DNA of 64,000 bases from Patescibacteria group bacterium (GTDB lineage Bacteria; Patescibacteriota; Patescibacteriia; JAHJFT01). The notes under the pieces are model-generated. The model was not told where the DNA came from. It was given only the letters and a program-made list of their open reading frames with translations, and made no database searches. The position numbers and the translations under genes are program-made. The stretch spans positions 19,280 to 83,279 of the forward strand of contig JAQTTB010000001.1 in the NCBI GenBank assembly GCA_028710985.1, read 5' to 3'. Positions 4,013 through 62,694 of the stretch are shown here, in pieces (the first letter of the stretch is position 1; the number at the start of each line of letters is the position of its first letter).

Positions 4013-4732
4013 TTATTTTTTACTCTCCGGAGCCGCACCCCGCTTTGCCTCTTCCCGCCCCTCTTTCACCGCCTCGGCAACATACCGGGTCATGAGCTCA
4101 ATTGATTTAACCGCGTCATCATTTGCCGGTATGCAATAAGCAACGCCGGTTGGATCAATATTCGTGTCACAGAGCGCAACCAGTTTGACGCCGCGGTTAT
4201 CGGATTCGGCGCGCGCGGTTTTTTCGTATTTCAGATCAACCACGAAAATCGCATCCGGAATTTTATTGAGTTCCTGGATACCGCCGATTCTCTGGCGCAA
4301 TGTTTCAATCTCGCGCGCGAAAACCAATTGCTCCTTTTTTGTATATTTCTTAAGTTCGCCTTTTTCCTGGCGCTTCTGCAGATCACGGAACTTCCGGAGC
4401 AATATGAGAATCTCACTAAAATTCGTAAGCATTCCGCCGAGCCACCGCTCGGTAAGATACGGCGCCCCGCATTCAATGGCGTAGCGCTTCACGATATCCT
4501 TGGCCTGGCGCTTCGTGCCGAGAAATAGCACGACTCCGCCGCGCGCCACGGTTTGGCGCACGAAATCCAGAGCCTTCTCCAGGTATTTCTGCGTTTCCTC
4601 CAGATTGATGATGTGTACATTATTTCTCGCGCCGAAAATGTACGGTTCGGCTTTGGGATGCCATCGGCCGGTCTGGTGCCCAAAATGCACGCCGGCTTCA
4701 AGCATCTCCAATATTGTTGGTAGTTTTGGCAT
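4013..4732 (-). CDS. rpsB: 30S ribosomal protein S2
   Basis: MPKLPTILEMLEAGVHFGHQTGRWHPKAEPYIF... is a typical uS2 N-terminus. Followed by tsf. Confidence 0.9.
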   Translation of the reverse strand: MPKLPTILEMLEAGVHFGHQTGRWHPKAEPYIFGARNNVHIINLEETQKYLEKALDFVRQTVARGGVVLFLGTKRQAKDIVKRYAIECGAPYLTERWLGGMLTNFSEILILLRKFRDLQKRQEKGELKKYTKKEQLVFAREIETLRQRIGGIQELNKIPDAIFVVDLKYEKTARAESDNRGVKLVALCDTNIDPTGVAYCIPANDDAVKSIELMTRYVAEAVKEGREEAKRGAAPESKK

Positions 4733-4847
4733 ATTAAAAAAATATTCCTTTTTACCGCTGTCTCGGACTCGCTAAGGGGCCCCGTGGGGCAGGATCTTAA
4801 CTTACTCGCCCAAAACATGAGAGATTAATTAATTTAATTGTGGCTGT

Positions 4848-4876
4848 ATTATATATATAAGCCCCGACCCTGTCAA
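4848..4876 (-). promoter_or_regulatory. sigma70-type promoter for rpsB-tsf (TTGACA-N17-TATAAT, perfect consensus on minus strand)
   Basis: Minus-strand reading is TTGACA gggtcggggcttatata TATAAT. The -35 is at 4876..4871 and the -10 at 4853..4848. It sits about 110 nt upstream of the rpsB ATG and leaves a leader compatible with S2 autoregulatory leaders. Confidence 0.55.
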
Positions 4877-4899
4877 GAGAGGGGTTGATATGTTAAAAT

Positions 4900-4972
4900 A
4901 GCTTGTAGGAAGTAGCTTGTAGCTTGTAGGACGCGACCTATTAAGATCCTACAAGCTACAAGCTACAAGCTA
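4900..4972. repeat. large inverted repeat built from heptamer triplets (AGCTTGTAG x3 / CTACAAGCT x3) ending 3 nt before the ATG of the 4975 gene
   Basis: Left arm agcttgtaggaagtagcttgtagcttgtagga and right arm tcctacaagctacaagctacaagct flank a 15-nt loop cgcgacctattaaga. A possible TTGTAG-N16-TATTAA promoter is embedded in it. Confidence 0.6.
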
Positions 4973-4974
4973 AT

Positions 4975-7071
4975 ATGCTCGTCACCCGCACAACCTATCT
5001 CATTACAATTGCCATCCTGATAGTACTGGAGGCCGTCTTCCAGCTATTGTGGCCCAGCCCGCTCTTCGGACTCCTGATATTTGCCGCCGGGCTCGGTCTG
5101 ATCGGGCTGGTTATCGGCGCGCGCCTCCTTCCGAACTGGCGCCGCGCCGAACAGGTGCTTTGGGGCGCAATGTTTGTTTTTTCAATGATTGCGATCGCGG
5201 TCGCGATTTTTTATTATTTCTGGTCCATGAATCCCTTGGCCCTCTCCCTCGCCTGGCTTCCGCCCGCGGTTGCCGGATTCTTTTCTCTGCCAACGCCGAT
5301 CATGATCAATGACGAAGAAAAGAAAAATTCTATTCTTGTAAAAATTCTTTTGGCCGCGCTTTTTATTATCATCACCGCCATCGTCCTCAAGACCGCCGAC
5401 CTGCTCTGGGATTCCGGCACGCTGGAAGCAATCCGCTCGCCATGGACCGTTGTTCCGAAAAACTTTTTTATTCTTTTTTATCTCGCCACTGCCGCCGCTC
5501 TTATCTTTCTCGCGAAATCCAAATCAACAAAATTCGCCTGGCTTACTGCCGGCGCTCTGACGTTCCTGTTTCTGGGCATCAATCTTTTTATTTACAAAAT
5601 CGGCTACGGCTTTGACCCGTTCATCCATCAGGCCACGGAAAAATACCTAGCCGAACACGGCACTATCACTCCAAAGCCGTTCTATTACATCGGCCAATAT
5701 TCATGGGTTGTGTTTTTAAATTACTTTACCCATCTCGGCATCAATCTGCTCGATAAGCTTCTCCTGCCCATCCTCGCAGCCGCCGCGCTGCCGGCCGCGG
5801 TCTATACCGGCCTGCGTCGGGGATTCGGTCTCGCGGAAAGCAAAAGCCGGCTCGCCGCGCTCCTCATCCTTCTCATTCCCCTCTCCTCAATGATCGCGAC
5901 CACGCCGCAGGGGCTCGCCAATCTTTTTACCCTGATAATCATTTTTCTTTCGCTCGCCCATCTCCGTTCCAAAACCCCGCCGCTCATACTTCTCGTTGTT
6001 CTTGCGGCCGCGACCGTGTTCATCCATCCGCTTTCCGGCATTCCGACCGCCATCTATCTCACCCTGATTGTAATAATTAAAATTAAAAAATCAAAAATCC
6101 GGATTCCGCTCGTTGCCGCGGCCGCGGGTTTAGGCGCCATTGCCCTACCCCTGCTTTTTATTTTGAATTCCCTGCTCTCCGGCACGGCGGTTGAAGCCAC
6201 TACCGCGATCCTCCAAAGTCCGGCCGTACTCTTTAGTAATCTCCAATTGCCGGCGTTTTATACCGCGAGCCACTTTTCAAGTATTTTGGATTTTATCTAC
6301 ATCTACGGATACAATCTCGCCTGGATTATTCCGCTCCTTGCCATACTTGCCATTATTTTTATCGCCCGCAAAAAAATTCCGTACTGGTGGCTCGCGCTCG
6401 TGATGTTTGCCATACTGCTGGTCAACTATTTTTTCTTACAAAATGCGGTTGAATTTTCTTTTCTTATTTCCTACGAGCGCGGCGCCTATGCCGAGCGCGT
6501 GCTTGCGCTCGCGCAATTTTTTCTATATCCGTTTTTCATTCTCGGCGTAATCGCCTGGGTTGGCCGGGCCTGGCGCGGACCGTGGGCCGTACGCGCGGTT
6601 ATTATTCTCTTTCTCGCCGCCTGCCTTAGCGCCTCCCTCTATCTCTCCTACCCGCGGCAAGACGCCCTGGAAATCTCAAAGGGCATTAATGTTTCAAAAA
6701 GCGATTTGGCCGCCGTGCAATGGGTTGAACGCGACGCACCGAATGATGAGTTCATCGCGCTCGCGAATCAAACTGTGGCCGCCGCCGCTTTGCATGAATT
6801 TGGATTTAAAAAATATTTTGGCGACAAATTCTACTATCCCATCCCGACCGGCGGCGAACTCTACCAGTATTATCTCAAAATGTCATATGAATCACCCTCG
6901 GCCGTAACCATGCGCCAGGCAATGGACTTGGTCGGAGTAAATTACGGATATTTTATCATCAACGATTATTGGTGGAATTCGGAAAAAATAATTGAAGATG
7001 CTAAACTCCAGGCCGGCTCGTGGCAGGAGATTGACGAAGGGAAAATTTATATTTTCAAATATAAAAAATAA
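4975..7071 (+). CDS. polytopic membrane protein, GT-C-like (YfhO/GtrC/PMT-like architecture: about 500 aa of TM helices plus a C-terminal soluble domain)
   Basis: 698-aa ORF with more than 12 predicted hydrophobic helices, then a roughly 190-aa hydrophilic C-terminal domain containing NDYWWN. No homology search was possible. The call rests on architecture and on context beside GT2/GtrA genes. Confidence 0.5.
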   Translation: MLVTRTTYLITIAILIVLEAVFQLLWPSPLFGLLIFAAGLGLIGLVIGARLLPNWRRAEQVLWGAMFVFSMIAIAVAIFYYFWSMNPLALSLAWLPPAVAGFFSLPTPIMINDEEKKNSILVKILLAALFIIITAIVLKTADLLWDSGTLEAIRSPWTVVPKNFFILFYLATAAALIFLAKSKSTKFAWLTAGALTFLFLGINLFIYKIGYGFDPFIHQATEKYLAEHGTITPKPFYYIGQYSWVVFLNYFTHLGINLLDKLLLPILAAAALPAAVYTGLRRGFGLAESKSRLAALLILLIPLSSMIATTPQGLANLFTLIIIFLSLAHLRSKTPPLILLVVLAAATVFIHPLSGIPTAIYLTLIVIIKIKKSKIRIPLVAAAAGLGAIALPLLFILNSLLSGTAVEATTAILQSPAVLFSNLQLPAFYTASHFSSILDFIYIYGYNLAWIIPLLAILAIIFIARKKIPYWWLALVMFAILLVNYFFLQNAVEFSFLISYERGAYAERVLALAQFFLYPFFILGVIAWVGRAWRGPWAVRAVIILFLAACLSASLYLSYPRQDALEISKGINVSKSDLAAVQWVERDAPNDEFIALANQTVAAAALHEFGFKKYFGDKFYYPIPTGGELYQYYLKMSYESPSAVTMRQAMDLVGVNYGYFIINDYWWNSEKIIEDAKLQAGSWQEIDEGKIYIFKYKK

Positions 7072-9593: not shown

Positions 9594-10712
9594 CTACCAA
9601 AATATAATTAGTCGTGCAATTAAAAAATAAAGATTAAACAACGGATTAGCGATTTTAAGCGCCCAATTATTAATTTCCTGATACTCAATCTTCCCTGTGA
9701 AATGACGAAGCACTTCTTTATCCCCGATACTTCTCGCGCGCGCGATTCTCGCGTGCTTGACGAAGAGATACGGCCAGTGCCACGGCGCGATCATCCAAAG
9801 ATATGCCTTAAGCTTCTCGCGCCACCAGCCGGACTTGATGGAAAAAATAAACTGCCCGAGCTCCATCGCGAGAAAGGCCGGCAGAAACACGAGCTGGGTC
9901 AGAAATTTATAATCGCAAAAATATAAAATAAAACGATTTCGCTCCATCCAGTAATATTTTGAAATACTCCGGCTGAATTCATATTCGTGATACACAACCG
10001 ACCGCGGCGCGAGCACGTTCACGAACCCGCCAAGCCGGAGCCGCCAGCCCAGATCCAGGTCTTCGTGATACGCAAAAAGTTTTTCATCAAAAAGCCCGGC
10101 ATCGCGCAAGGCGCCGATCTTGTATAAAACCCCGGCTCCGGAGCCGTAAGCAATTTCCGGAAGCCCGATAAAATCGCGTTCGCTCCGCGCCGCGCGCGAA
10201 CCGCCGCAAAATCCGAATCCCAGATAATGAATCATGTTGCCCGACGAATTAATGAGTCCGCGCTCGGGCCAGAGCGCGAGCAGAGACTGCACCGAACCGA
10301 TTTTCTGATTTGATTCCGCCGCATCGACGGCATGGCGCAAAAAATCCGGCTCAACCCGCGTATCGTAATTTATTAAATAAACATAATCAAAACCCTGCAC
10401 CTGCCTGCCGGTAGGCAGGGCCATTGCATACTCAATCGCGCGGTTGTTTCCGCCGGCAAAGCCGAGATTCGTGTTCATGGGCATAAAGTGAATCTTCGGC
10501 AGCCCCTGGGGCGGCGACTGCATTATCTCCAGAATGCGCTCGCGCGACCCGTCGGTTGACGCATTGTCAACAATAACAAGCTCAACCGCCTCCCGCGGAT
10601 AATCCAAGAGCGCGAGCGATTCAATCCAGGCATCTAAAAAACGCCGCGCCTTCCAGAGCACGGCGATAATTGCCACTCGTTTTACATCCTGATTATTCAT
10701 GCTTTTTTGCAT
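9594..10712 (-). CDS. glycosyltransferase family 2 with C-terminal membrane extension
   Basis: VAIIAVLWKARRFLDAWIESLALLDYPREAVELVIVDNASTDGS is a GT2 signature with a DxD region. The start is chosen at MQKSMNN (10712), giving a 20-nt overlap with the upstream DUF2304-like gene. The ORF track's 10838 start would give a 146-nt overlap. Confidence 0.7.
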   Translation of the reverse strand: MQKSMNNQDVKRVAIIAVLWKARRFLDAWIESLALLDYPREAVELVIVDNASTDGSRERILEIMQSPPQGLPKIHFMPMNTNLGFAGGNNRAIEYAMALPTGRQVQGFDYVYLINYDTRVEPDFLRHAVDAAESNQKIGSVQSLLALWPERGLINSSGNMIHYLGFGFCGGSRAARSERDFIGLPEIAYGSGAGVLYKIGALRDAGLFDEKLFAYHEDLDLGWRLRLGGFVNVLAPRSVVYHEYEFSRSISKYYWMERNRFILYFCDYKFLTQLVFLPAFLAMELGQFIFSIKSGWWREKLKAYLWMIAPWHWPYLFVKHARIARARSIGDKEVLRHFTGKIEYQEINNWALKIANPLFNLYFLIARLIIFW

Positions 10713-11729: not shown

Positions 11730-11962
11730 TCGTCATTCCCGCGAAGGCGGGAATCCAGAAACAGTATACCTTGCGGATTCGATTTATAAACTGTCACACA
11801 AATCACTCCAAAGCGGATTGCAGTCTTCAATGAATTTAATCTTTTAGACCCTTTCCACTTATTGGAGGATGCAAATATAGAACTGCCGATAATCGGACAT
11901 AGCATAAATAAGTAGCCCCGAGATTAATTGGTTGTGGATTCCCGCCTTCGCGGGAATGACAG
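11730..11962. mobile_element. MITE-like 233-bp element with 26-bp terminal inverted repeats of the REP-like palindrome CGTCATTCCCGCGAAGGCGGGAATCC
   Basis: cgtcattcccgcgaaggcgggaatcc at 11730..11755 and its reverse complement ggattcccgccttcgcgggaatgac at 11936..11960. The interior is non-coding and AT-rich. The only ORF across it, 11702..11905, is the typical LDSRLRGND translation artefact of this palindrome. Confidence 0.6.
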
Positions 11963-41396: not shown

Positions 41397-41789
41397 ATGG
41401 GCGAAACTATCAAATCATTTGAGGACTTGCTCGTTTGGCAAGAGTCGCACAAGCTCATGATTGACGCTTATGGGTTCGCGGACCGCTATTTGCCGCCGGA
41501 AGAAAAATACAATCGCATTTCTCAAATAAAACGCTGTTCAAGCTCAATCCCTGCCAATATCGCCGAAGGTTATGGTCGATTTCATTTCTTGGAAAATATC
41601 CAATATTGCCGGCAAGCCCGAGGTTCACTTGATGAACTTAAAAACCACATCATCGCCGCCCGAGACCTAAAGCAGGCTCCTCCGGAAGAATGTGCCAAAT
41701 TTATCCAAAAATGCAATTATGTACGGGCTATCCTAAATAACTACATTAACAAAACTCATGATCTCTATATTGAAAATAAGCAAAAATAG
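41397..41789 (+). CDS. four-helix-bundle protein (23S rRNA intervening-sequence protein family)
   Basis: LLVWQESHKLMIDAYGF...IPANIAEGYGRF is a conserved signature of this family. 130 aa. Confidence 0.7.
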   Translation: MGETIKSFEDLLVWQESHKLMIDAYGFADRYLPPEEKYNRISQIKRCSSSIPANIAEGYGRFHFLENIQYCRQARGSLDELKNHIIAARDLKQAPPEECAKFIQKCNYVRAILNNYINKTHDLYIENKQK

Positions 41790-43023: not shown

Positions 43024-43265
43024 ATCAATAAAATCCCTCTCTGCCTCTCCCTTCCTGCCTGCCGGCAGGCAGGTTGCATACTTTTGGTTACAAAAGTATG
43101 TCCTGCTGAAAGCAAACAAGAGTGGTGCTAGAAAAGATAATTATTGCCCAGACAGGTGGCAGGCAAGAACTTAAAAATCCCAATATTAAAACAACTTGTA
43201 CGATAATATATAATAGGATTCCCCCGGTACATTGAACCTGGATTCCCGCCTTCGCGGGAATGACA
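43024..43265. repeat. copy A of a ~215-240-bp intergenic repeat, containing the perfect palindrome CCTGCCTGCCGGCAGGCAGG, the hairpin CATACTTTTGgttaCAAAAGTATG, and a terminal REP-like palindrome (43240..43265)
   Basis: Near-identical to 56987..57199. The palindrome is at 43054..43073 and the hairpin at 43077..43100. Confidence 0.8.
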
Positions 43266-47777: not shown

Positions 47778-50700
47778 CTAGAAGGTCAATACCACGTTTT
47801 CGGTGAGATCCTTGACGAGATACTCGTCAGTCCAATCACCGGTTGACAACGTATCTAATTGAGCGTTGTGCGGTATTGCCGCCTTGTCTGACCAGACAAG
47901 GTAAGCAGCAACTTCGCCACCCACTACACCGGTTGCATCCAAGTTCGGACCACGTACGGTGCCGACCGCGGCTGCATTCAGGTGATAGGTGTAGATGGTT
48001 GAGCTGCCAGTCTTAATAGTTACGTTAAGCGACTCGCTGGAGCCTGCACCGCCAACCGTACCCTTGAGGGTAAAGATGTGGCCGGAGCCAGAAATGCTCT
48101 GCTCTGTGCCGCTCGTGTAACTAATAAAGATTGTGCCCGAGGCATCGGTTGCGCCTTCAACAGTATTGCCGAGGTTATCAGTGATGGTAACCAAATCGGA
48201 AATATCTGTACCGTCCTGGAACCACTTCAAGGTATCAACCGTGAACGCACCGCTCTTAGTGAATTCGAATGTGAGTTTCGCGACACCCGCATCGCCTGCA
48301 CTGTCTGCGGTAACCTTGGTCTTGTAGAGTTCAATCGTACCGTTGGCCAGGCTCGAGCTAGCTAACGCTTGCTTGGCAAAAGTAAGCTTGGTCTTGCGGA
48401 TAACCATTGGGTTGCCCGCGAGGACCGCCGAGGCCGCCGCGTACACGCGCTCGCCGGACATGGCGCCCGTGCCCTTCACATTGTAACTATTGGTATAGTT
48501 CGCATCCCACTCGCCGGTCGTAACATTGTATTCAACCGCGAGTTTCGGGTTGTTGCCCGAGGTTGCGCCTGCGTCAATCGCGTTCAGCTTGCCAACCACC
48601 TGGAAGGTCACACTGCCGTCAGCCGGCACGGTGATCGGGGTGGAAAGCGTGATGTCGGTCGCCGTCGCCGAACCCGGGAACACATCCGTGCCCGAGGAGA
48701 CGATTACGCCGTCCTTCTGAATCGCGAGGTACTTGAAGTCACTATTTGCGCCGCCGCTATAGCGTTGCAGGCGGATCTTGTCAACGGAGATATTTTCGTA
48801 CTGTGAAGTAATCTTGGCTTGGGCAAAGGTTGTCCAAGCATCCTTACCGGCAATGACAATGTCGGTTGACGGATTTGATTCCGCCGCGATTGTCAATGTA
48901 CCGGAATTCTTCACAGTCTGGAAGATTGTCGGACCGTTGTTGATCGGATTGCTCCAAGTCACGTCGCCGTCAGTCGCAGTAACTGAATTGGCATCTGCGT
49001 CTTCGGCCGAAATATCGGTTTCGAGAGCAATACCGACCCAGAATGTGTCATCCGTACCGCCGGAAGTCGCCACTGAATCAAGTATTGCCTTGACAACCAA
49101 TGTCTTGGTTTCACCCGCCGGAATGCTATAGCTGAGACCGTCAAATGTGGCGGTACCCGCCGTTGCATCCGGGCTCTCGGCCGTGCCGAGCTGAGTCGTG
49201 CCATCCCACAGCGTAAGCTGGGTAATGACATCGTCCAGTTGAGCCGCGGTATAACCCGCACCGTTCACATTGCCCTGACCAGTGACTTTAACGCTCGTCA
49301 CTTTGATTGCGCTCTGTGAACCAGCTGTGAACACAAAACCAGATGAAGCAACATCTGATGTCTTCTTGACATAGGTGTCACTCACCGGAGTCGCGGCCAG
49401 CTGAACTGTCAGACTCGATGTCTTGACCGTCATGGTGTTGCCGGTAATAACCGCATTCGGCACGATTTGGGTTACAGCGAGATATTCGCCTGTGGCATTG
49501 TTCTTCACATAATCGGCAGCAAAGGCATTCAACTTGGCCACATATTGGCGATCGCTGTTGAACCAGGCGTTGTTTGCCACATCGGCCTTGAGGGCCAAAT
49601 TCTTGGTTGTGCCCGCGTTCACATAAAATGAATCGCTAACCACCCAAGTGCAAGTAGTTGCATCCTCACCACAGGCGGGACTTCCGCTTGAAAGTTGAGT
49701 CGGACCGGCGACAACTTCGCCGGAATCGGTATCAACTAATTTGATGTCAGTGAACAGATCTGTGGTGGATGCGTCAATGTAGTCATCACCATTGATACCT
49801 GCCAGTGTGAAGCTGATCTTGCGGACCTCGAGAGTGTTCTCGGCCGCAGTCATGCCAAACTGGAAGAAGATCTGATCCTGGCCGGCCTTTGGCATAGTGC
49901 CAGTCGCCGGACCATTGTAAGCGATCGTCAATTGACCGCCCTCGGTATTCGTGGTTACTGAATCGCCGCTATCAAAATCATCAATGTTCACTGCCGCGCC
50001 CCAGCCATAGGTATTATCTGTGGCATCGACATCGGTAGTGTACTCAAGATAGGTAATGATAGAGCGGCCGCCCTTGCCCACGACATCGGCCTTGACATAA
50101 AGAGTCTTGGTTGTGCCGTTGGAAATGAGATAAGGCGTGGCGAGGATAAAGTTTATCTTATCGCCGACAATTGTCGCTGTTTCGGCCACTAATTCTGTAC
50201 CAACATACAGCTTCAGGTTGGTAACGTCGCTGTTCACGACCGTACCGGCCTGAGCGATGCTGATTTGATTAAGCTTAATATCCGCGCTTGCGGCAGTAAG
50301 CTTAAATGAAGAAATCGTGGCTGCAAGTGATCCAACTGTTACGTTGGCCGGATCTGAACCTTCATTCACCGTCAGAGTGGCGGCATCCTGTGCACCAACC
50401 GTGAAGGTGTTGCCGCGTATCGGGAAACTGCCCGAAACCGTGGCGGTTGTGCCAACCTTACTCGTCGCAACGAGCTCTAGGGCATGTTCATCCGCAGCTA
50501 TTGCGGTTGAACTCAAATCGCCGCGGACCGTGAGATACTTGGTCGTGCCGGCGGTAATCGTCAAGTTCAGGTTGTTGAATTGAGCCTCGTTTGAGCTGGT
50601 ATTGATACTGCGACCGCTCGTCAGTCTTGTTGAACCCTCATAGAGGTAGACGTTCGTGAAGTCGCTCGCTGTACCAACGCCAAGGCGATGGAATGTCAGG

Positions 50701-51557
50701 GTATTAAGAATGACATTGCCGTCCGAGCTCGCGGTCACAGCGACCTTAATAAGCTGCACGCTTGACGAACCCTGGGCGACAGTTGCGCCCGCCGGGGTGT
50801 CAGAGGCCAAGGCCACGGCAAGACCGGTGCCTGTGCCGGAAACGCCGGCTACAAGATCCGTAATGCCCGCTTCACCGCCGGTAACCGCGGTTCCGTCCGC
50901 ATAAGTTACATCGGCCGCGACTGGGCTAATTACGAAACGCCATTGGAACATGTTGGCATCAAATGCCGCCTCGTTCGCAATTGCGCGCTTCTGACCATCC
51001 TGAATGTAGTAGACGGATGCACCAGAAGCATACTTAATCAAGCATCCATTCGGATGCACATAAGTGCTGATTGAGGTGCCGATTGAATAGTTGGTGAAGA
51101 ATGAATCCGGAACGTCAACTACCCAGCTGGCCCAATTTGTTCCCCAGAGTTTCTGGGCAACGGCCTCGGTCTCAACCCAATGCAAAACACCGCCGGTCGT
51201 CACGGCATAAACCTTGGGATCGGTGGTAATTTTGATTAGGAATGTACCTGGGCGGATTGTGATATTTCCGCCGATAGAGACTGCCGCGAGTTCCGCGTCA
51301 GTGATCTCTTTCAGGGTTGAGAAATCGGGGTACCATGAATAATAGGTGTTCTCGTTCGGGAAAACGTATCTCTTACCATCTGCTGCGTAATAATACACCG
51401 CCGGTTGGCTGGCCTTAATAAGGTCGCCTGCGGACAAGGTCGCTGCTTCCGCTGCCAAAGGCATTATGAAAGCCGCAAAACCGATTGACCACGCCATGGT
51501 GGTGATAACTACGCCAACGGTAAGGATCCTCTTTGAAATGCGTAGAACTTCAGTCAT
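47778..51557 (-). CDS. giant secreted cell-surface protein (1259 aa), Thr/Ser/Ala/Gly/Val-rich, a candidate S-layer or surface-layer glycoprotein
   Basis: Signal peptide ending AEAA. Low-complexity beta-rich repeats. GC content is about 55%, far above the neighbouring island. A long structured leader lies upstream. Confidence 0.7.
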   Translation of the reverse strand: MTEVLRISKRILTVGVVITTMAWSIGFAAFIMPLAAEAATLSAGDLIKASQPAVYYYAADGKRYVFPNENTYYSWYPDFSTLKEITDAELAAVSIGGNITIRPGTFLIKITTDPKVYAVTTGGVLHWVETEAVAQKLWGTNWASWVVDVPDSFFTNYSIGTSISTYVHPNGCLIKYASGASVYYIQDGQKRAIANEAAFDANMFQWRFVISPVAADVTYADGTAVTGGEAGITDLVAGVSGTGTGLAVALASDTPAGATVAQGSSSVQLIKVAVTASSDGNVILNTLTFHRLGVGTASDFTNVYLYEGSTRLTSGRSINTSSNEAQFNNLNLTITAGTTKYLTVRGDLSSTAIAADEHALELVATSKVGTTATVSGSFPIRGNTFTVGAQDAATLTVNEGSDPANVTVGSLAATISSFKLTAASADIKLNQISIAQAGTVVNSDVTNLKLYVGTELVAETATIVGDKINFILATPYLISNGTTKTLYVKADVVGKGGRSIITYLEYTTDVDATDNTYGWGAAVNIDDFDSGDSVTTNTEGGQLTIAYNGPATGTMPKAGQDQIFFQFGMTAAENTLEVRKISFTLAGINGDDYIDASTTDLFTDIKLVDTDSGEVVAGPTQLSSGSPACGEDATTCTWVVSDSFYVNAGTTKNLALKADVANNAWFNSDRQYVAKLNAFAADYVKNNATGEYLAVTQIVPNAVITGNTMTVKTSSLTVQLAATPVSDTYVKKTSDVASSGFVFTAGSQSAIKVTSVKVTGQGNVNGAGYTAAQLDDVITQLTLWDGTTQLGTAESPDATAGTATFDGLSYSIPAGETKTLVVKAILDSVATSGGTDDTFWVGIALETDISAEDADANSVTATDGDVTWSNPINNGPTIFQTVKNSGTLTIAAESNPSTDIVIAGKDAWTTFAQAKITSQYENISVDKIRLQRYSGGANSDFKYLAIQKDGVIVSSGTDVFPGSATATDITLSTPITVPADGSVTFQVVGKLNAIDAGATSGNNPKLAVEYNVTTGEWDANYTNSYNVKGTGAMSGERVYAAASAVLAGNPMVIRKTKLTFAKQALASSSLANGTIELYKTKVTADSAGDAGVAKLTFEFTKSGAFTVDTLKWFQDGTDISDLVTITDNLGNTVEGATDASGTIFISYTSGTEQSISGSGHIFTLKGTVGGAGSSESLNVTIKTGSSTIYTYHLNAAAVGTVRGPNLDATGVVGGEVAAYLVWSDKAAIPHNAQLDTLSTGDWTDEYLVKDLTENVVLTF

Positions 51558-55353: not shown

Positions 55354-55664
55354 TTAAACAACCCACTATACCACATTTTTGCGTTTTTGTCAACTCTCGA
55401 GTCCGGCCAGCTCTTGACAAAACCCGCAATTTATGATATACTTTACCGTTAAAGTCAAAATGGAACAGTCGTATCTTATGACAAATTTTGGCTAAAGCAA
55501 GCCCTTTACAACCTTCTCCCAAGCGTCGAATCTACATTTTCTGGCTATTTTCAGCAATGGTTGGCACACAGTTCAACCCCACCTGCTCGGCTTATATTAT
55601 GCAGATTCATCGCTTAGGAGAAGCAAAACAACCTAAACGCAAAAAACACCGAGGAGGGTGTAAA

Positions 55665-56699
55665 ATGAAGAACTCCAGGATAGTGCTGATTCTCTGCGCC
55701 CTGGTACTGATGGCCTGCGAGACGAGGTACGTGGACGTGGGCGGCGAGCCCGACACCTCCATCGACACCGCGTCCGACAGCGTGGAGCTCTGCTCCGACG
55801 GCCTGGACAACGACATGGACGGCCTGGTCGACTGCAACGACAACGACGGCGACGAGAACTGCCCGCCGTGCGCGGACGCGTCAACCGACGCCGTGGCCGA
55901 CGAGATCGAGGACAGCGCAGAAACCGACGTCCCGCCCGTGGAGCTCTGCTCCGACGGCCTGGACAACGACTTCGACGGACTCGTGGACTGCAACGACGGG
56001 GACGACTGCTGCGATGAAGCAGTGTGCGTTACGAGCGAGCACTGCGCTTCGGAAGACGCTTCAAGCGACTCCGAAGAGGAAGCCGACGCAGTCTCCGACT
56101 CGGGTGCGGATTCGGATCCCGCCGAGGACCCCGTGCCTGACACTGATCCCGACACCGCCTCCGACCCGGATAGCGCAAGCGATCCGGACGCGGTCTCTGA
56201 CCCGGACGTGGTGGACGCCGAAGCCGACGCAGCTGACATCCTCCACTCCGGCCTGGCCACGTTCAAGTGGTGCCGGCCCATGACCATGGCGCGCCCCGAC
56301 CACATTCTCGCGGAATGCTTTGTCTGGGGAAGCCTCTATGAAAGCTGGGATGACTCCTGGGAGCTGGCAACCGGCTCTCCGGACTTCGTCGCACCGGCCG
56401 ACAGCGACTGCATCGAGTTCACCCTGCCAGATCTGGATTACACGCTCCTCGGAATAAGCGTAGAGTGCAACATCACTGCCTATTCCGACTCGGCGTACGG
56501 GCCGTGGGGACGCATCTACGCTCTCGGCGAGTGCACGTGCGGCGGCAGCTGTGTCGTAAAAGGCACGCTTACCGTCCGTTCCGGTCCCGACGCTGATGAC
56601 GCAACCGCCTTGGATCTCACGAGCCTAGTCGTGCAGAATCCGCGATGCGCGTCCCTGAGCGACCAGGCCGGCAACTACGTCCTCTCACCTATTCCATAG
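55665..56699 (+). CDS. secreted acidic lipoprotein with thrombospondin type-3-like calcium-binding repeats (high-GC compositional outlier)
   Basis: Strong RBS GAGGAGG 7 nt upstream of the ATG at 55665. Lipobox LVLMAC. Two repeats: [27 protein letters not shown] and [22 protein letters not shown]. Poly-(DPD[ST]AS) tract. GC above 60%. The ORF track's longer start at 55488 was rejected. Confidence 0.6.
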
Positions 56700-56805: not shown

Positions 56806-56845
56806 AAATAAAAAACGCCCCGTGTTTACCGAGGGCGTTTTTTTG
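56806..56845. terminator. rho-independent terminator (bidirectional character)
   Basis: aaaaaaCGCCCcgtgtttaccgaGGGCGttttttt. Confidence 0.65.
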
Positions 56846-56986
56846 TGCATCTTAGTCAGAACATGGGGTTCGGGGGCGCAACTGAGCATGGCGCTAGGAA
56901 GCAGTGAATTGCCTATTTGCCGAGAGCGAACCCGCCTGCCAACGCCTGGCGTAGGCCTGGCGGGCAGGTTTGCGACCCCGAAACTT

Positions 56987-57199
56987 CCTGCCTGCCGGCA
57001 GGCAGGTTGCATACTTTTGGTTACAAAAGTATGTCCCGCTGAAAGCGAACAAGAGTGATGCTAGAAAACAATAATCAATACCCAGACAAGCGGCAGGCTG
57101 TGGCTAGAAAATCCCAATATTAAAACAACTTGCACGAAAATATTTAATAGGATTCCCCCGGTACATTGAACCTGGATCCCCGCCTTCGCGGGGATGACG
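56987..57199. repeat. copy B of the ~215-bp intergenic repeat (palindrome at 56987..57006, hairpin at 57010..57033, REP-like palindrome at 57174..57199)
   Basis: Same orientation as copy A at 43024..43265, with an almost base-for-base match: cctgcctgccggcaggcaggttgcatacttttggttacaaaagtatgtcc(c/t)gctgaaagc... then ...taataggattcccccggtacattgaacctgga. Confidence 0.8.
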
Positions 57200-57247
57200 A
57201 AGAGAGCACTTTGCCACTTACCGTCATTCCCGCGAAAGCGGGAATCC
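57174..57247. repeat. inverted pair of REP-like palindromes (GGATCCCCGCCTTCGCGGGGATGACG, 24-nt spacer, CGTCATTCCCGCGAAAGCGGGAATCC) forming a ~28-bp-stem hairpin
   Basis: Units at 57174..57199 and 57222..57247. The second is followed by agaaaca, as at 11756. Confidence 0.8.
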
Positions 57248-57261
57248 AGAAACAAAGCCCC

Positions 57262-57385
57262 TCCAAAATCCCTCTCTGACACGTCGCTCGCGAGCGACGT
57301 GTCTCTGTCTCCCCCTTCCTGCCTGCCGGCAGGCAGGTCAGCCACCCCGAAACTTTTTGGTTACTTTTTGGTTACAAAAAGTAAC
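57262..57385. repeat. partial third copy of the intergenic repeat (palindrome CCTGCCTGCCGGCAGGCAGG at 57318..57337 and hairpin GTTACTTTTTGgttaCAAAAAGTAAC at 57360..57385)
   Basis: aaaatccctctctg...ctcccccttcctgcctgccggcaggcagg matches 43030..43073. Confidence 0.7.
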
Positions 57386-59411: not shown

Positions 59412-61469
59412 TTATTTAATCATGGACAATGTAAAAACCCCGGTTGTCTCGGCGATAATCTCATCGCGTCCATCATTGTCAATATCCGTCGCCGCAACGC
59501 CGACTCCGGAATTATCGTGCACATCATAAGCAAAAAATCCGCCGCCGTCGAGCGCCTGCCCTTTTTCGTTGAACACGCGCACATGCGGACCGCCGCCCAG
59601 GCCCGGACCAGTGATTATTTCATCCGCGCCATCGCCATCCGTATCCCCGGCCGCGACATTCACTCCGCCACGAAAATTTTTATCATAAGCGAAAAATCCC
59701 GGATTGATCAGGCGTCCGTCCAGCCCAAAAACGCGCACATGCGGACCCCCGCCGACTCCGGCTCCGGCAATTATCTCTTTCCAGCCGTCGCCGTTCAAAT
59801 CTCCGATCGTCACATTCACCCCGCCACGAAAATTTTTATCATAAGCGAAAAATCCCGGATTGATTAAAACGCCATCGCGGTTAAAAATTCTAATTTGCGG
59901 ACCGCCGCCATTTTCCGTTCCGGTGACGATTTCCATAAAACCATCCTTGTCCAAATCTCCGGCTGTGATATTTATGCCACCGCGATATTTATCCGTATAG
60001 GGATAGAACTGGGCATGCACCTTGCCGGAGGCATCATAAATCGTCACGCGATTTATATCACCGACCACGGTTTCGTCCTGACCGTCACTATTCAAGTCAG
60101 CAATCGCCACATTACTTCCGCCCCGGTAATCCGCTTCGTAGGCAAAAAAACCGGTGCGATAAACTTCGCCGTAACGGTTGAATATTCTTACAAAACTTCC
60201 GTTTGTGAATGTCGTGTTGGCAATTTTTTCGATCGGCCGAATCAGCACAATGCCGTCGCGCGGCGCGACAACTGTGCCGCTCACGATGGACCCGTCGTTT
60301 TTTTTCGGATCCTGGACACCGTGAATTTTTTCATATTCTCCAAAAAATTCGGTTGACTGGTTGCTGTAAGTAGAATTCACCAGCACCAAGCCGTTTTGAA
60401 ATTCGCGCTTCCACAAACCCTCCATTAAATCCGAACCGGAAGAAGTGAGGTTTTCCGCCGGACCCTTGGGAGCGCCGAGATATGCACCGTATTCATCATA
60501 CCACCAGGTTTGGCCGTGATCCTGGTCACCGAAATCAAAACTGTAATATCCGTCAAAAAGCATAGCGCTCGTATAACCGAAACGCATTGTCTTGTAATCA
60601 TTCTGGCTGCCGGTATTGTTCGTATTGGAATTTAGAATATTGGACGATGGCTGCTGCGATTCCGTGACGGCATCGCGGTAGTTTTTAAGCGCGTACGTCC
60701 AATCTTTGCTCGAAAAATTCTCAACCGTCACACCGTCGGTATGGTTTGCGTAATACGGGCCATCATTCAGCATCACGAGATATTTGGAGCCAATCGCACT
60801 CGCGGTTGCATCTAATGCTTTCGCGATTCCTTCTTTCCACAGGCGATTTGCGTCGCTTGATCCCGCCGGCTGACCGTCGCGGTTAAAATCAAGATTTCCG
60901 CCGGCAAAATATGTTACATCCTCCCAGCCATTATCAAAAAAAACACCATCCCATTTTCCCGAAGCGATAATTTCATTCTTAACAAAACTCGGCAAATAAT
61001 CATTCCAGCGTTGACCGGCAACCGAAAGGCATTCGTTCGTGATATTCATTATCCAATTGCCCTGCCAGAATGATCTTTTGTTTCCGGATGTATCAACGAG
61101 GTACCATTCATTTTTAATTCCCTGGGCCAATTTACGCCGCAGCGAACTTGAGGCCAGGCCGTCAATACTTTGTCGCACTTCAACGAGCGGAATATAAGCG
61201 AATATTTTTATATCCGGATTGATTCGCCTCATCGTGTCAATGGCGGAGGGATTGGATGTCTGGATATCCATGTCCAAAATCACCACATCCCATTCTGCAA
61301 GATCTCGCGCCTTGTCGTCTGCCACGCTCCAATGCAAAAAAATATTGGCCAACCGCGGCGCGTCCGTATTCAAAGGCGCACTTGCCGCCAAACCAGGCCA
61401 ACTAATAAATATAATTAACAAAATAAAAAAGCCTTGAACCCAAAACTTTAATTTACGGAGAATTTTCAT
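59412..61469 (-). CDS. secreted protein with an N-terminal TIM-barrel glycoside-hydrolase-like (GHL) domain and C-terminal FG-GAP/VCBS repeats
   Basis: Signal peptide beginning at MKILRKLKFWVQGFFILLIIF. The start is chosen at 61469; the ORF track start of 61574 adds 35 non-signal residues. Seven or more DxDxDG...GGGP(H/Q)VRVF modules. A 156-bp tandem duplication lies inside. Confidence 0.55.
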   Translation of the reverse strand: MKILRKLKFWVQGFFILLIIFISWPGLAASAPLNTDAPRLANIFLHWSVADDKARDLAEWDVVILDMDIQTSNPSAIDTMRRINPDIKIFAYIPLVEVRQSIDGLASSSLRRKLAQGIKNEWYLVDTSGNKRSFWQGNWIMNITNECLSVAGQRWNDYLPSFVKNEIIASGKWDGVFFDNGWEDVTYFAGGNLDFNRDGQPAGSSDANRLWKEGIAKALDATASAIGSKYLVMLNDGPYYANHTDGVTVENFSSKDWTYALKNYRDAVTESQQPSSNILNSNTNNTGSQNDYKTMRFGYTSAMLFDGYYSFDFGDQDHGQTWWYDEYGAYLGAPKGPAENLTSSGSDLMEGLWKREFQNGLVLVNSTYSNQSTEFFGEYEKIHGVQDPKKNDGSIVSGTVVAPRDGIVLIRPIEKIANTTFTNGSFVRIFNRYGEVYRTGFFAYEADYRGGSNVAIADLNSDGQDETVVGDINRVTIYDASGKVHAQFYPYTDKYRGGINITAGDLDKDGFMEIVTGTENGGGPQIRIFNRDGVLINPGFFAYDKNFRGGVNVTIGDLNGDGWKEIIAGAGVGGGPHVRVFGLDGRLINPGFFAYDKNFRGGVNVAAGDTDGDGADEIITGPGLGGGPHVRVFNEKGQALDGGGFFAYDVHDNSGVGVAATDIDNDGRDEIIAETTGVFTLSMIK
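59657..59863. repeat. intragenic tandem duplication (156-bp period; 51-bp near-identical cores at 59657..59707 and 59813..59863) within the FG-GAP region
   Basis: attcac(t/c)ccgccacgaaaatttttatcataagcgaaaaatcccggattgat occurs twice. It is also visible as the repeated HSATKIFIISEKSRID / HPATKIFIISEKSRID stretches in the antisense ORF 59376..59867. Confidence 0.8.
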
Positions 61470-62694
61470 TTTTGAGTTTAAGCGATGACTCATATATCTC
61501 AAATATTTTTTTATAGTGATCCGCCGCGCCGTTTTCTTTCTCCACCCTCGCCCTCCCCTGTTTTCCGAACTCAATAAGTTTTTTCGGATTTTTTTCCGCG
61601 TCCAGGATTCTTGCCGCTAAATCGTCCGGATTTCTTGGTTCATAGAGATAACCGCTCATACCGTGCTCAACCATTTCCGGAATTCCACCAAGCCGCGACG
61701 CGATTATCGCCTTGCCGAGCGCTTGGGCCTCGAGCACGCCATATGGATAATTATCGTGCATGAGCGTCGGCACGATTACCGCGCGGCATCCGCCAATTTC
61801 AGCCTTGAGCGCGTCCGGCGCAAGATGTCCGAAAAATTCAATATTTTTCGCGCCGCTGGTTTTTACAAAATCCTTAAGTCCGTTCTCGAGCGGTCCGGAT
61901 CCGGCGATCTTCAATTTAATATTCTTGTGTTTGCAAAAAACGCTTACCAGATCGGAGACTCCCTTTTCGTGCGCCAGCCGCCCGGCATAGAGATAGTAGT
62001 CTCCGACTGCTTCGTGCGGCTCATATTCATCAAGGAAAACAAAGTTCGGCACTACCTCAATGCGCTTCACCCGTACCCCCCAATCCTTAATTTTTTTGGT
62101 AAAGAAACGGCTTGGGCTAACGTAGCAATCTACCACATTTTCGTATATTTGTCTAGTCTTGGCAATGGCCATTTCCGCGGCCGCGAGAGCGCTCGAGGCC
62201 AGCGAATTCTGCGCGCATCTGTAAATAATGGCATTGTAATATTTGTGTTTGAAACACCTCTCGCAGATTCTGCCGCGGGTGAATAATTTATAATTCGGAC
62301 AAATGAGTTTATAGTCATGGAGGGTCAGGATTTTTGGCGCCGGCGAATCGCGGAGCGCATCCAGCACCGATGTACTCAGCTGATGATAGATATTATGGAG
62401 ATGCACAATATCGGGTTTAAAATCCGCGAGCAGTTTTTTCAAATTACTGCGCGCTTCGAAATTATATAAATACCCTGCCGCCTTGCCGGCTTCTCTTAAG
62501 ATTCCTTCGCGGCGGGTGTAATCAACTTCGGAAACAAAATACTTGCTCCATACGGATTTATCATTTTCACGGCCCTTCATGGAGAAGAATGCGACTTCGT
62601 GGCCCTGCCGCTTCAGGAGCTCCGCTAGGTCAAAAAAATAAGTTTCCGCTCCGCCGCGCCGGTAAAAAAATTTATTAATTAATAATATTTTCAT
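61453..62694 (-). CDS. glycosyltransferase family 4
   Basis: MKILLINKFFYRRGGAETYFFDLAELLKRQGHEV N-terminus. Typical GT4 C-terminal half. Confidence 0.8.
   Translation of the reverse strand: MKILLINKFFYRRGGAETYFFDLAELLKRQGHEVAFFSMKGRENDKSVWSKYFVSEVDYTRREGILREAGKAAGYLYNFEARSNLKKLLADFKPDIVHLHNIYHQLSTSVLDALRDSPAPKILTLHDYKLICPNYKLFTRGRICERCFKHKYYNAIIYRCAQNSLASSALAAAEMAIAKTRQIYENVVDCYVSPSRFFTKKIKDWGVRVKRIEVVPNFVFLDEYEPHEAVGDYYLYAGRLAHEKGVSDLVSVFCKHKNIKLKIAGSGPLENGLKDFVKTSGAKNIEFFGHLAPDALKAEIGGCRAVIVPTLMHDNYPYGVLEAQALGKAIIASRLGGIPEMVEHGMSGYLYEPRNPDDLAARILDAEKNPKKLIEFGKQGRARVEKENGAADHYKKIFEIYESSLKLKNENSP

Follow-up and report, generated by a model that had tools for sequence, protein, structure and literature searches.

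The 64,000-nt stretch of DNA analyzed here (the window) comes from a Patescibacteria group bacterium (assembly GCA_028710985.1, contig JAQTTB010000001.1, positions 19,280–83,279) and carries, on its plus strand, a gene with a G+C content (GC) far above that of its neighbors. This gene (hereafter, the target) is a genuine, conserved, and clade-specific gene for a very acidic, Cys-rich, predicted surface lipoprotein. The product is 100 per cent identical to GenBank MDD4994911.1 (PHW53_00320), a 'hypothetical protein' of a Patescibacteria group metagenome-assembled genome, encoded on a 744,538-bp contig. The features of the locus, in coordinates of the window, are as follows.

55393–55365, minus strand: second promoter-like site, back to back with the next one and placed to serve the GT4 gene (11/12 matches)
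55414–55442, plus strand: promoter-like TTGACA-17-TATACT, the -10 box preceded by TG (11/12 matches)
55449–55664, plus strand: inferred, structured 5' leader of ~216 nt (minimum free energy -57.2 kcal/mol; z = -3.9; 0/200 shuffles as good)
55651–55657, plus strand: Shine–Dalgarno (SD) sequence GAGGAGG, 7 nt before the ATG (anti-SD duplex -12.1 kcal/mol)
55665–56699, plus strand: coding sequence, 344 aa and stop (ATG 55665, TAG 56697–56699)
55665–55718, plus strand: signal peptide and lipobox L15-M16-A17-C18 (pattern match; lipobox Cys kept in 7/7 orthologs)
55782–55871, plus strand: module 1, residues 40–69, four Cys and a DxDxDGxxD calcium motif (best NF033662 stretch, residues 38–61)
55938–56045, plus strand: module 2, residues 92–127, six Cys ordered and spaced as in the teneurin C-rich domain (match to 7PLP_A)
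56046–56228, plus strand: acidic, low-complexity linker rich in Asp, Pro, Ser, and Ala, residues 128–188 (from the translation; four imperfect DPDxxS hexapeptides)
56229–56696, plus strand: C-terminal domain of 'type A', residues 189–344, eight Cys, predicted all-beta (no relatives outside the clade)
56816–56845, plus strand: hairpin CGCCC...GGGCG followed by TTTTTTT (plus strand read by eye; the scan found the hairpin on the minus strand)

An automatic listing of open reading frames (ORFs) opens the target at TTG 55488 (55488–56699). We favor ATG 55665 as the start, because GAGGAGG precedes it and all orthologs align from that Met. An antisense ORF at 55607–56305 (232 aa) was set aside as a by-product of high GC, and comparable spurious ORFs overlap every ortholog. 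Residues 15–18 (LMAC) follow a Lys/Arg-containing n-region and a hydrophobic core and satisfy the PROSITE-style pattern [LVI][ASTVIM][GAS]C, and Cys18 is the predicted site of lipidation and start of the mature protein. The mature protein contains 81 Asp and Glu residues versus eight Lys and Arg, as well as 18 Cys. In the product of the target, Asp makes up 17 per cent of residues. The original prediction, drawn from the letters of this stretch, had described a secreted lipoprotein with a lipobox and a long acidic tract, and the lipobox pattern, its conserved Cys, and these residue counts of a highly acidic protein agree with it; its suggestion that the organism belongs to the candidate phyla radiation was likewise correct, the product being that of a Patescibacteria genome.

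A conserved slot with a compositional step

Orthologs of the target occupy the same slot in six other Patescibacteria lineages (loci L001, L010, L006/L012, L007/L039, L008/L011, and L009), which makes seven lineages with the window. The slot consists of a minus-strand GT4 gene, the plus-strand target, and a minus-strand DUF11 gene, followed by GHL15/FG-GAP and further GT4 genes, with sigma-70 and DUF5667 genes on the side of the first GT4 gene. The ortholog in L001 (P0028) lies in the same GT4–DUF11 slot, and the flanking proteins of L001 are 39–66 per cent identical to those of the window. A scan of genome contigs returned the L001-type genome only; the further loci were obtained by scanning metagenomes with the DUF11 protein, followed by tblastn and reading of the ORFs. 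Every related locus whose sequence spans the site has the target between its GT4 and DUF11 genes; high-GC loci that are more distant and carry a DUF11 homolog lack it. The architecture is common to all orthologs: behind the lipobox come one or two Cys/Asp modules, then a low-complexity acidic linker, and last the C-terminal domain.

The target differs from the rest of the window in base composition, as had been predicted. Its GC is 0.641 and its GC at third codon positions (GC3) is 0.803, whereas the other 49 ORFs of the window have GC of 0.29–0.572 and GC3 of 0.31–0.632. Host codon usage combined with the amino acids of the target gives an expected GC of 0.559, and amino-acid content accounts for about half of the excess; the remainder lies at synonymous sites. 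The expected GC3 is 0.572 ± 0.025 when all genes outside the low-GC island described below are used (target z = 9.3) and 0.615 ± 0.025 when the four other plus-strand genes are used (target z = 7.6), and the latter is the fairer control because the genome shows strand asymmetry. An apparent 'C-specific third-position bias', obtained by comparison with the opposite-strand flanks, was discarded, as the same-strand control shows part of it to be strand asymmetry. Within the gene, the module segment has the highest GC3 (0.925), whereas the GC of the leader is 41 per cent, and the composition step coincides with the coding sequence.

The same excess over neighbors is found in every lineage. The orthologs have GC of 0.56–0.66 and GC3 of 0.61–0.87, versus 0.38–0.53 and 0.29–0.61 in their neighbors; the excess is smallest in L001 and L010, and in L039 the GC3 of the ortholog is 0.797, versus 0.38–0.49 in ten neighbors. 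The fraction of C in two-fold pyrimidine-ending codons is 0.69–0.92 in 7/7 orthologs versus 0.17–0.45 in the flanks, and at four-fold sites the gain is to C only, with G unchanged. The high GC is an inherited property of the gene family, common to relatives at the same chromosomal spot. The atypical composition is therefore no sign of recency, because all orthologs share the anomaly.

Conservation of position is accompanied by rapid change of sequence. Across lineages, the flanking proteins are 51–78 per cent identical (up to 94 per cent in the closest pair), whereas the target is 27–57 per cent identical. Specifically, in the L008/L009 pair the target is 57 per cent identical versus 84–94 per cent for the flanks, and its ratio of nonsynonymous to synonymous divergence (dN/dS) is 0.39 versus 0.01–0.05; the C-terminal head domain is under purifying selection overall (dN/dS of 0.21–0.39). 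In the same pair, dS is 0.78 in the target versus 2.2–2.6 in the flanks, which reflects either synonymous constraint or recent exchange.

Two types of the C-terminal domain, A and B, occur; they have diverged deeply and have been swapped between the close relatives L001 and L010. The flanks of these two loci have 88–92 per cent nucleotide identity and the N-terminal halves of their target proteins 71 per cent amino-acid identity, whereas the C-terminal domains are 22 per cent identical (15 bits), and the L010 domain shows 33–38 per cent identity with the type B domains found in L006–L009. The nucleotide match between L001 and L010 stops inside the acidic linker and restarts ~20 nt after the stop codon. 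Horizontal exchange does occur here, but it replaces alleles or domains among members of the clade and does not amount to acquisition of the gene. For exchange of the head, only the L001/L010 pair is decisive. Incongruence of the whole-protein tree was rejected as evidence of exchange, as the A/B split among the window, L001, and L006–L009 is explicable by rate change alone. A role in host attachment is a candidate only; the faster evolution and the C-terminal swapping are in keeping with it.

The window contains no tRNA gene, and no integrase or transposase gene adjoins the target, whose neighbors are the GT4, DUF11, sigma-70, and DUF5667 genes. The repeats 3' of the target are dispersed elements resembling repetitive extragenic palindromes that are found elsewhere in the window, not direct repeats flanking an island. 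Two types of these intergenic palindromic repeats are dispersed at 10400, 11732–11960, 43050–43264, and 56959–57380 (CCTGCCTGCCGGCAGGCAGG at four sites; GTCATTCCCGCGAAAGCGGGAATCC at five sites, on both strands; chance expectation none), and they take up a large part of the 800-bp spacer that follows the target.

Other parts of the window and of the related loci deserve a brief description. The region 16055–41254 holds ~23 ORFs, all but one on the minus strand, with GC of 0.29–0.44 and GC3 from 2 to 8.5 standard deviations below the rest, among them genes for a Polysacc_synt flippase, asparagine synthase, methyltransferases, and epimerases. It looks like a low-GC surface-glycan cluster, with a composition anomaly opposite to that of the target, and a gene of the 23S rRNA-intervening-sequence protein family (41397–41789) lies at the edge of this low-GC island. 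A 1,259-aa ORF at 47778–51557, without a Pfam match and with 64–66 per cent identity in L001 and L039, has the top share of C-ending Asp, Asn, His, Tyr, and Phe codons among the minus-strand ORFs of the window (0.48). At 59412–61574, GHL15 and FG-GAP are fused in one 720-aa ORF, as in L006–L009 and L039, whereas in L001 (13187–15213) they are two adjoining genes of 417 and 258 aa. Between its sigma-70 and GT4 genes, L001 also has extra genes (4130–5812) that are missing from the window, including a 203-aa ORF (25 per cent GC) and an APH-family kinase gene (32 per cent GC); this is likely an insertion in the L001 lineage.

Modules, linker, and head domain

The two Cys/Asp modules have 68 nt in common at 88 per cent identity (55781–55848 versus 55937–56004). 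Both carry the motif DxDxDGxxDxxD, which reads D48-N-D50-M-D52-G53-L-V-D56-C-N-D59 in the translation of module 1 and D100-N-D102-F-D104-G105-L-V-D108-C-N-D111 in that of module 2. The NCBIfam model NF033662 (acidic double-disulfide repeat) matches the target in two stretches with a whole-protein score of 46.8 bits (E = 1.7e-12), above the curated cut-off of 41 bits. The orthologs of L001, L010, and L006 also pass (44.6, 59.1, and 54.4 bits), that of L009 scores below the cut-off (34.8 bits), and those of L007 and L008 have no match to this model. The number of Cys per module varies, with four in module 1, six in module 2, and two in the repeats of L001 and L010; we read the name of NF033662 as implying four per repeat.

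Outside the clade, matches to the repeat region are multi-repeat lipoproteins of Bradymonadia and Myxococcota, some of them named MopE-related, and they cover 9–47 per cent of the target. Among structures, a single-sequence search of PDB returned chain 7PLP_A (E = 0.0015), and the alignment pairs every one of the six Cys of module 2. A profile built from an alignment of the 13 repeats of the clade retrieved 13 teneurin sequences from PDB (best E = 1.5e-6) and no other proteins. As judged from these matches, the modules are homologs of the teneurin C-rich domain and of the bacterial acidic double-disulfide (MopE-related) repeat. A connection between the teneurin and MopE motifs was already made by Tucker et al. 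(PMC3278476) and is hence known, and we found no literature under the name of the NCBIfam repeat. The Cys/Asp module also appears, by its motif, in other large proteins encoded by genomes of the clade: a 1,332-aa protein in L039 (19182–20915; the gene runs off the locus) has MopE-like CxDxxDNDCDGxxD modules.

The C-rich domain of Ten4 comprises 38 residues, binds three Ca2+ via eight acidic residues, and has disulfides 1–3, 2–5, and 4–6; two of its Ca2+ sites resemble thrombospondin type 3 repeats (Meijer et al., PMC9058538). Module 2 keeps the ligand positions (D97, D100, N101, D102, D104, D108, D111, and D114) and the six Cys, with one inserted residue; by homology with Ten4, its disulfides would be expected to be C95–C115, C109–C121, and C116–C127. 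Binding of Ca2+ by the modules is plausible, because their only solved relatives, the teneurin C-rich domains, bind three Ca2+ in a thrombospondin-type-3-like way.

The original prediction had reported two disulfide-rich modules with calcium motifs, both of which are evident in the translation, and had assigned them to the thrombospondin type 3 family. The calcium and disulfide chemistry is reasonable by homology with teneurins, but the family label is wrong. Neither the whole protein nor the isolated repeats matched Pfam-A at E ≤ 10, and the orthologs had no Pfam match either. In particular, hmmscan did not detect TSP_3 (PF02412) at E ≤ 10 in the whole protein, each repeat, or the repeat region; Cu-binding_MopE (PF11617) was not detected at E ≤ 10 in the target or its repeats, whereas the control P0002 scores 38.8 bits; and the PDB profile search returned no thrombospondin chains at E ≤ 1. 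Membership in the TSP_3 and MopE families was therefore rejected. Nor is the repeat uncommon in bacteria, as had been thought: it has its own NCBIfam model and is found in many-repeat lipoproteins of Bradymonadia and Myxococcota.

The long acidic tract of the original prediction corresponds to the linker, which is visible in the translation (residues ~128–188); no tandem array was called in its DNA by Tandem Repeats Finder. Its length and sequence differ among orthologs, with DP, DT, and VDT repeats, and it has weak matches to the SD-repeat stalks of SdrC and SdrD.

Among 1.84 billion representative proteins, the only other cluster that matches the C-terminal domain is P0028, also from Patescibacteria (47 per cent identity, E = 1.7e-22). 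A profile of seven C-terminal domain sequences matched only P0061, the L007/L039 ortholog, in the large-database search. A two-sequence profile matched nothing there, which is a weak negative, as the query proteins were missed as well. Sequence and profile searches of PDB gave nothing below E = 0.6 for this domain, and Pfam also gave nothing. A Foldseek search of PDB with the first AlphaFold model returned generic beta-sandwiches (E ≥ 0.05, TM ≤ 0.21), which we treated as meaningless; in the AlphaFold model, the module region has a predicted local distance difference test score (pLDDT) below 50. Positions of Trp, Cys, and Gly are conserved across head types A and B, and the final residue of the domain is Pro in 7/7 orthologs.

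Expression signals and explanations of the composition

The promoter-like element TTGACA-17-TGnTATAyT is found upstream of 5/5 orthologs for which sequence is available. The start of the 216-nt leader was placed from the position of the promoter. The leaders of orthologs measure 85–160 nt and are also more structured than their shuffled versions (z from -3.1 to -6.7; L006 4897–5049, L007 9113–9268, L008 4483–4642, L009 5580–5708). A long stem is common to four leaders, with a few compensatory pairs, and neither the leader nor the 3' region matched a credible Rfam family at the gathering threshold and E ≤ 1. The leader could be mRNA-stabilizing or regulatory. The SD sequence is the strongest in the window, as originally predicted: the anti-SD duplex is -6.5 kcal/mol or weaker in the other 49 ORFs, and even rpsB offers no more than AAGGA. 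Strong SD sequences seem scarce in the genome, so the GAGGAGG of the target stands out, and the orthologs carry AAGGAGG-type sites. Downstream, the hairpin at 56816–56845 is likely a bidirectional terminator between two convergent genes.

We propose, with a probability of about 0.55, that the target encodes a vertically inherited lipoprotein, confined to one small Patescibacteria clade, that lies on the cell surface, is probably very abundant, is stiffened by calcium, and has a variable head. It would be transcribed from the near-consensus promoter and translated, behind the long structured leader, from the sole strong ribosome-binding site of the window, and the product would be exported and anchored by lipid at Cys18. 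Beside the membrane, the two disulfide-knotted, Asp-rich modules would each be expected, by analogy with teneurins, to hold two to three Ca2+ and so turn rigid. The ~60-residue polyanionic Asp/Pro linker would form an extended stalk, and the 155-residue Cys-rich beta domain at the tip would be the working, variable head. Two recombining head types fit a surface structure under diversifying pressure. Finally, a force acting on synonymous sites would maintain the high G+C; we favor selection on codons or mRNA that is linked to very high expression, and this is the least secure step.

Several observations weigh against parts of this proposal. The probable abundance of the protein is read only from the expression signals, and the genes for Lgt and LspA processing are not encoded within the 64-kb window. 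For rpsB, tsf, and gap in the window, which are classical genes of high expression, the codon bias is faint (NAC of 0.37–0.46 and GC3 of 0.56–0.59), and part of the excess of C at four-fold sites in the window is common to the other plus-strand genes. G-ending two-fold codons for Glu, Lys, and Gln are raised in 5/7 lineages, a pattern unlike the one that tRNA-driven selection usually leaves. In L007 and L008, DNEPGG stands in place of the DxDxDG motif, and calcium binding, as far as it can be read from the motif, is not universal in the family. AlphaFold2 gave a pLDDT of 46 for the full protein and of 36 for the C-terminal domain with a two-sequence alignment, and neither model is good enough to give a usable head fold.

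The original prediction had taken the anomalous composition to indicate horizontal acquisition. A recent transfer from a high-GC donor (Myxococcota, Bradymonadia), with the composition as an un-ameliorated foreign signature, would account for the GC of 64 per cent versus ~49 per cent in neighbors, for G- and C-ending codons both being raised relative to same-strand genes, and for the best repeat-region matches being to Bradymonadia, Myxococcota, and 'Proteobacteria'. We nevertheless regard it as very improbable. It is already contradicted by the syntenic orthologs in six further lineages, each with the same composition anomaly, among flanking proteins that are 51–78 per cent identical. Moreover, the matches outside the clade span 9–47 per cent of the protein and only its repeats, relatives of the C-terminal domain are confined to the clade, there is no adjoining tRNA, integrase, or transposase gene, and the composition changes at the boundary of the coding sequence, downstream of a leader with 41 per cent GC. 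Because the orthologs are only 27–57 per cent identical and dS in the flanks is saturated, a passive foreign signature should have decayed by now, so something appears to maintain GC3. The target is therefore a cautionary case: a gene 15 GC points above its neighbors, of the kind usually flagged as foreign, is an old resident.

A recombination hot spot, at which the GC3 would be a by-product of GC-biased gene conversion or of allele import from a GC-richer pool within the clade, without expression-linked selection, is a possibility that we entertain tentatively. O-antigen loci, whose composition is persistently atypical, offer an analogy for the allele pool. This explanation fits the C-terminal swap between L001 and L010 despite 88–92 per cent identical flanks, the 88 per cent DNA identity of the two intragenic modules in a segment with GC3 of 0.925, and the raised G-ending codons, and the low dS of the L008/L009 pair relative to the flanks could mean recent exchange. 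However, at four-fold sites the gain is to C only, and a symmetric conversion bias should lift G too; no GC-rich source population was found, the distant high-GC DUF11 loci lacking the gene; and 30–50 GC3 points far exceed the reported bacterial biased conversion. We rank expression-linked selection first and recombination-linked GC bias second, because the expression signals are conserved. A different function, as a polyanionic cation store or envelope spacer that buffers Ca2+ and Mg2+ with a net charge of about -73 in the manner of teichoic acids, in which the protein is not a specific adhesin and the C-terminal domain is structural, seems unlikely. The 81 acidic versus eight basic residues of the mature protein, the presence in every ortholog of an acidic linker whose length varies, and the neighborhood of envelope glycan and wall-associated protein genes agree with it, whereas the conservation of Trp, Cys, and Gly across head types, together with dN/dS of 0.21–0.39, points to a folded functional domain, and the swapping of head types resembles specificity switching.

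The calcium-stiffened surface lipoprotein that we favor can be extended further, in a version that is speculative and that we consider doubtful. In that version, the target would be the dominant surface protein, a stalked lipoprotein resembling teneurins, with the head as a specificity determinant facing hosts or phages; the locus would be a cassette-swapping switch of antigenicity or host range, and the GC3, kept up over a very long period in the face of the genomic background, would reflect an undescribed expression or mRNA constraint in ultra-small bacteria. Patescibacteria live attached to other cells, and to our knowledge very few of their surface proteins have an assigned role. The target is a concrete surface-protein candidate, being clade-specific, apparently built for high expression, composed of modules with a solved animal counterpart, and equipped with a head that is exchanged. 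If selection causes its composition, codon or mRNA selection would be strong in organisms thought to have little of it; if recombination does, the gene marks a hot spot.

Comparison with known systems

The closest structural counterpart of module 2 is the C-rich domain of human Ten4 (residues 834–871, PDB 7PLP), all six Cys of which are present in the same order. The positions equivalent to Ten4 D840, D843, N844, D845, D847, D851, D854, and D856 are occupied by Asp or Asn in module 2, and G-L-V (848–850) is kept. Module 2 also approximates the teneurin consensus ExxCx(D/N)xxDx(D/E)xDxxxDCxxx(D/E)CCxxxxCxxxxxC (Tucker et al., PMC3278476) from the first to the last Cys, with one residue inserted before CC and with Glu at position -2 instead of -3. 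In contrast, module 1 has four Cys only, and the proteins as a whole differ: teneurins are 2,700-aa animal type II membrane proteins with EGF, TTR, and YD-shell parts, whereas the target is a bacterial lipoprotein of 344 aa.

The NF033662 or 'MopE-related' proteins of Bradymonadia and Myxococcota have the same repeat, and many of them are likewise lipoproteins with an N-terminal Cys. They consist of 5–10 tandem repeats and little else, whereas in the target two repeats are joined to a stalk and to a C-terminal domain private to the clade. PF11617 matches some of these multi-repeat proteins (P0002, for example) but not the target. Thrombospondin type 3 repeats have the DxDxDGxxDxxD motif and flanking disulfides in common with the modules of the target, but they differ in Cys pattern and repeat length, and their profile gives no match.

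In overall layout, the target resembles SdrC, SdrD, and ClfA of Staphylococcus, in which an acidic low-complexity spacer also lies between the anchor and a folded domain. The matches to these proteins are weak and compositional (E = 0.003; 15 bits versus cut-offs of 1,700–2,500), without homology of the folded domains, and the order of the anchor is reversed, with an N-terminal lipid in the target and a C-terminal LPXTG in SdrC, SdrD, and ClfA. Finally, although the target has no sequence similarity to S-layer families, genes for S-layer and other major surface proteins resemble it in having a consensus promoter, a long structured leader, a strong ribosome-binding site, and atypical codons.

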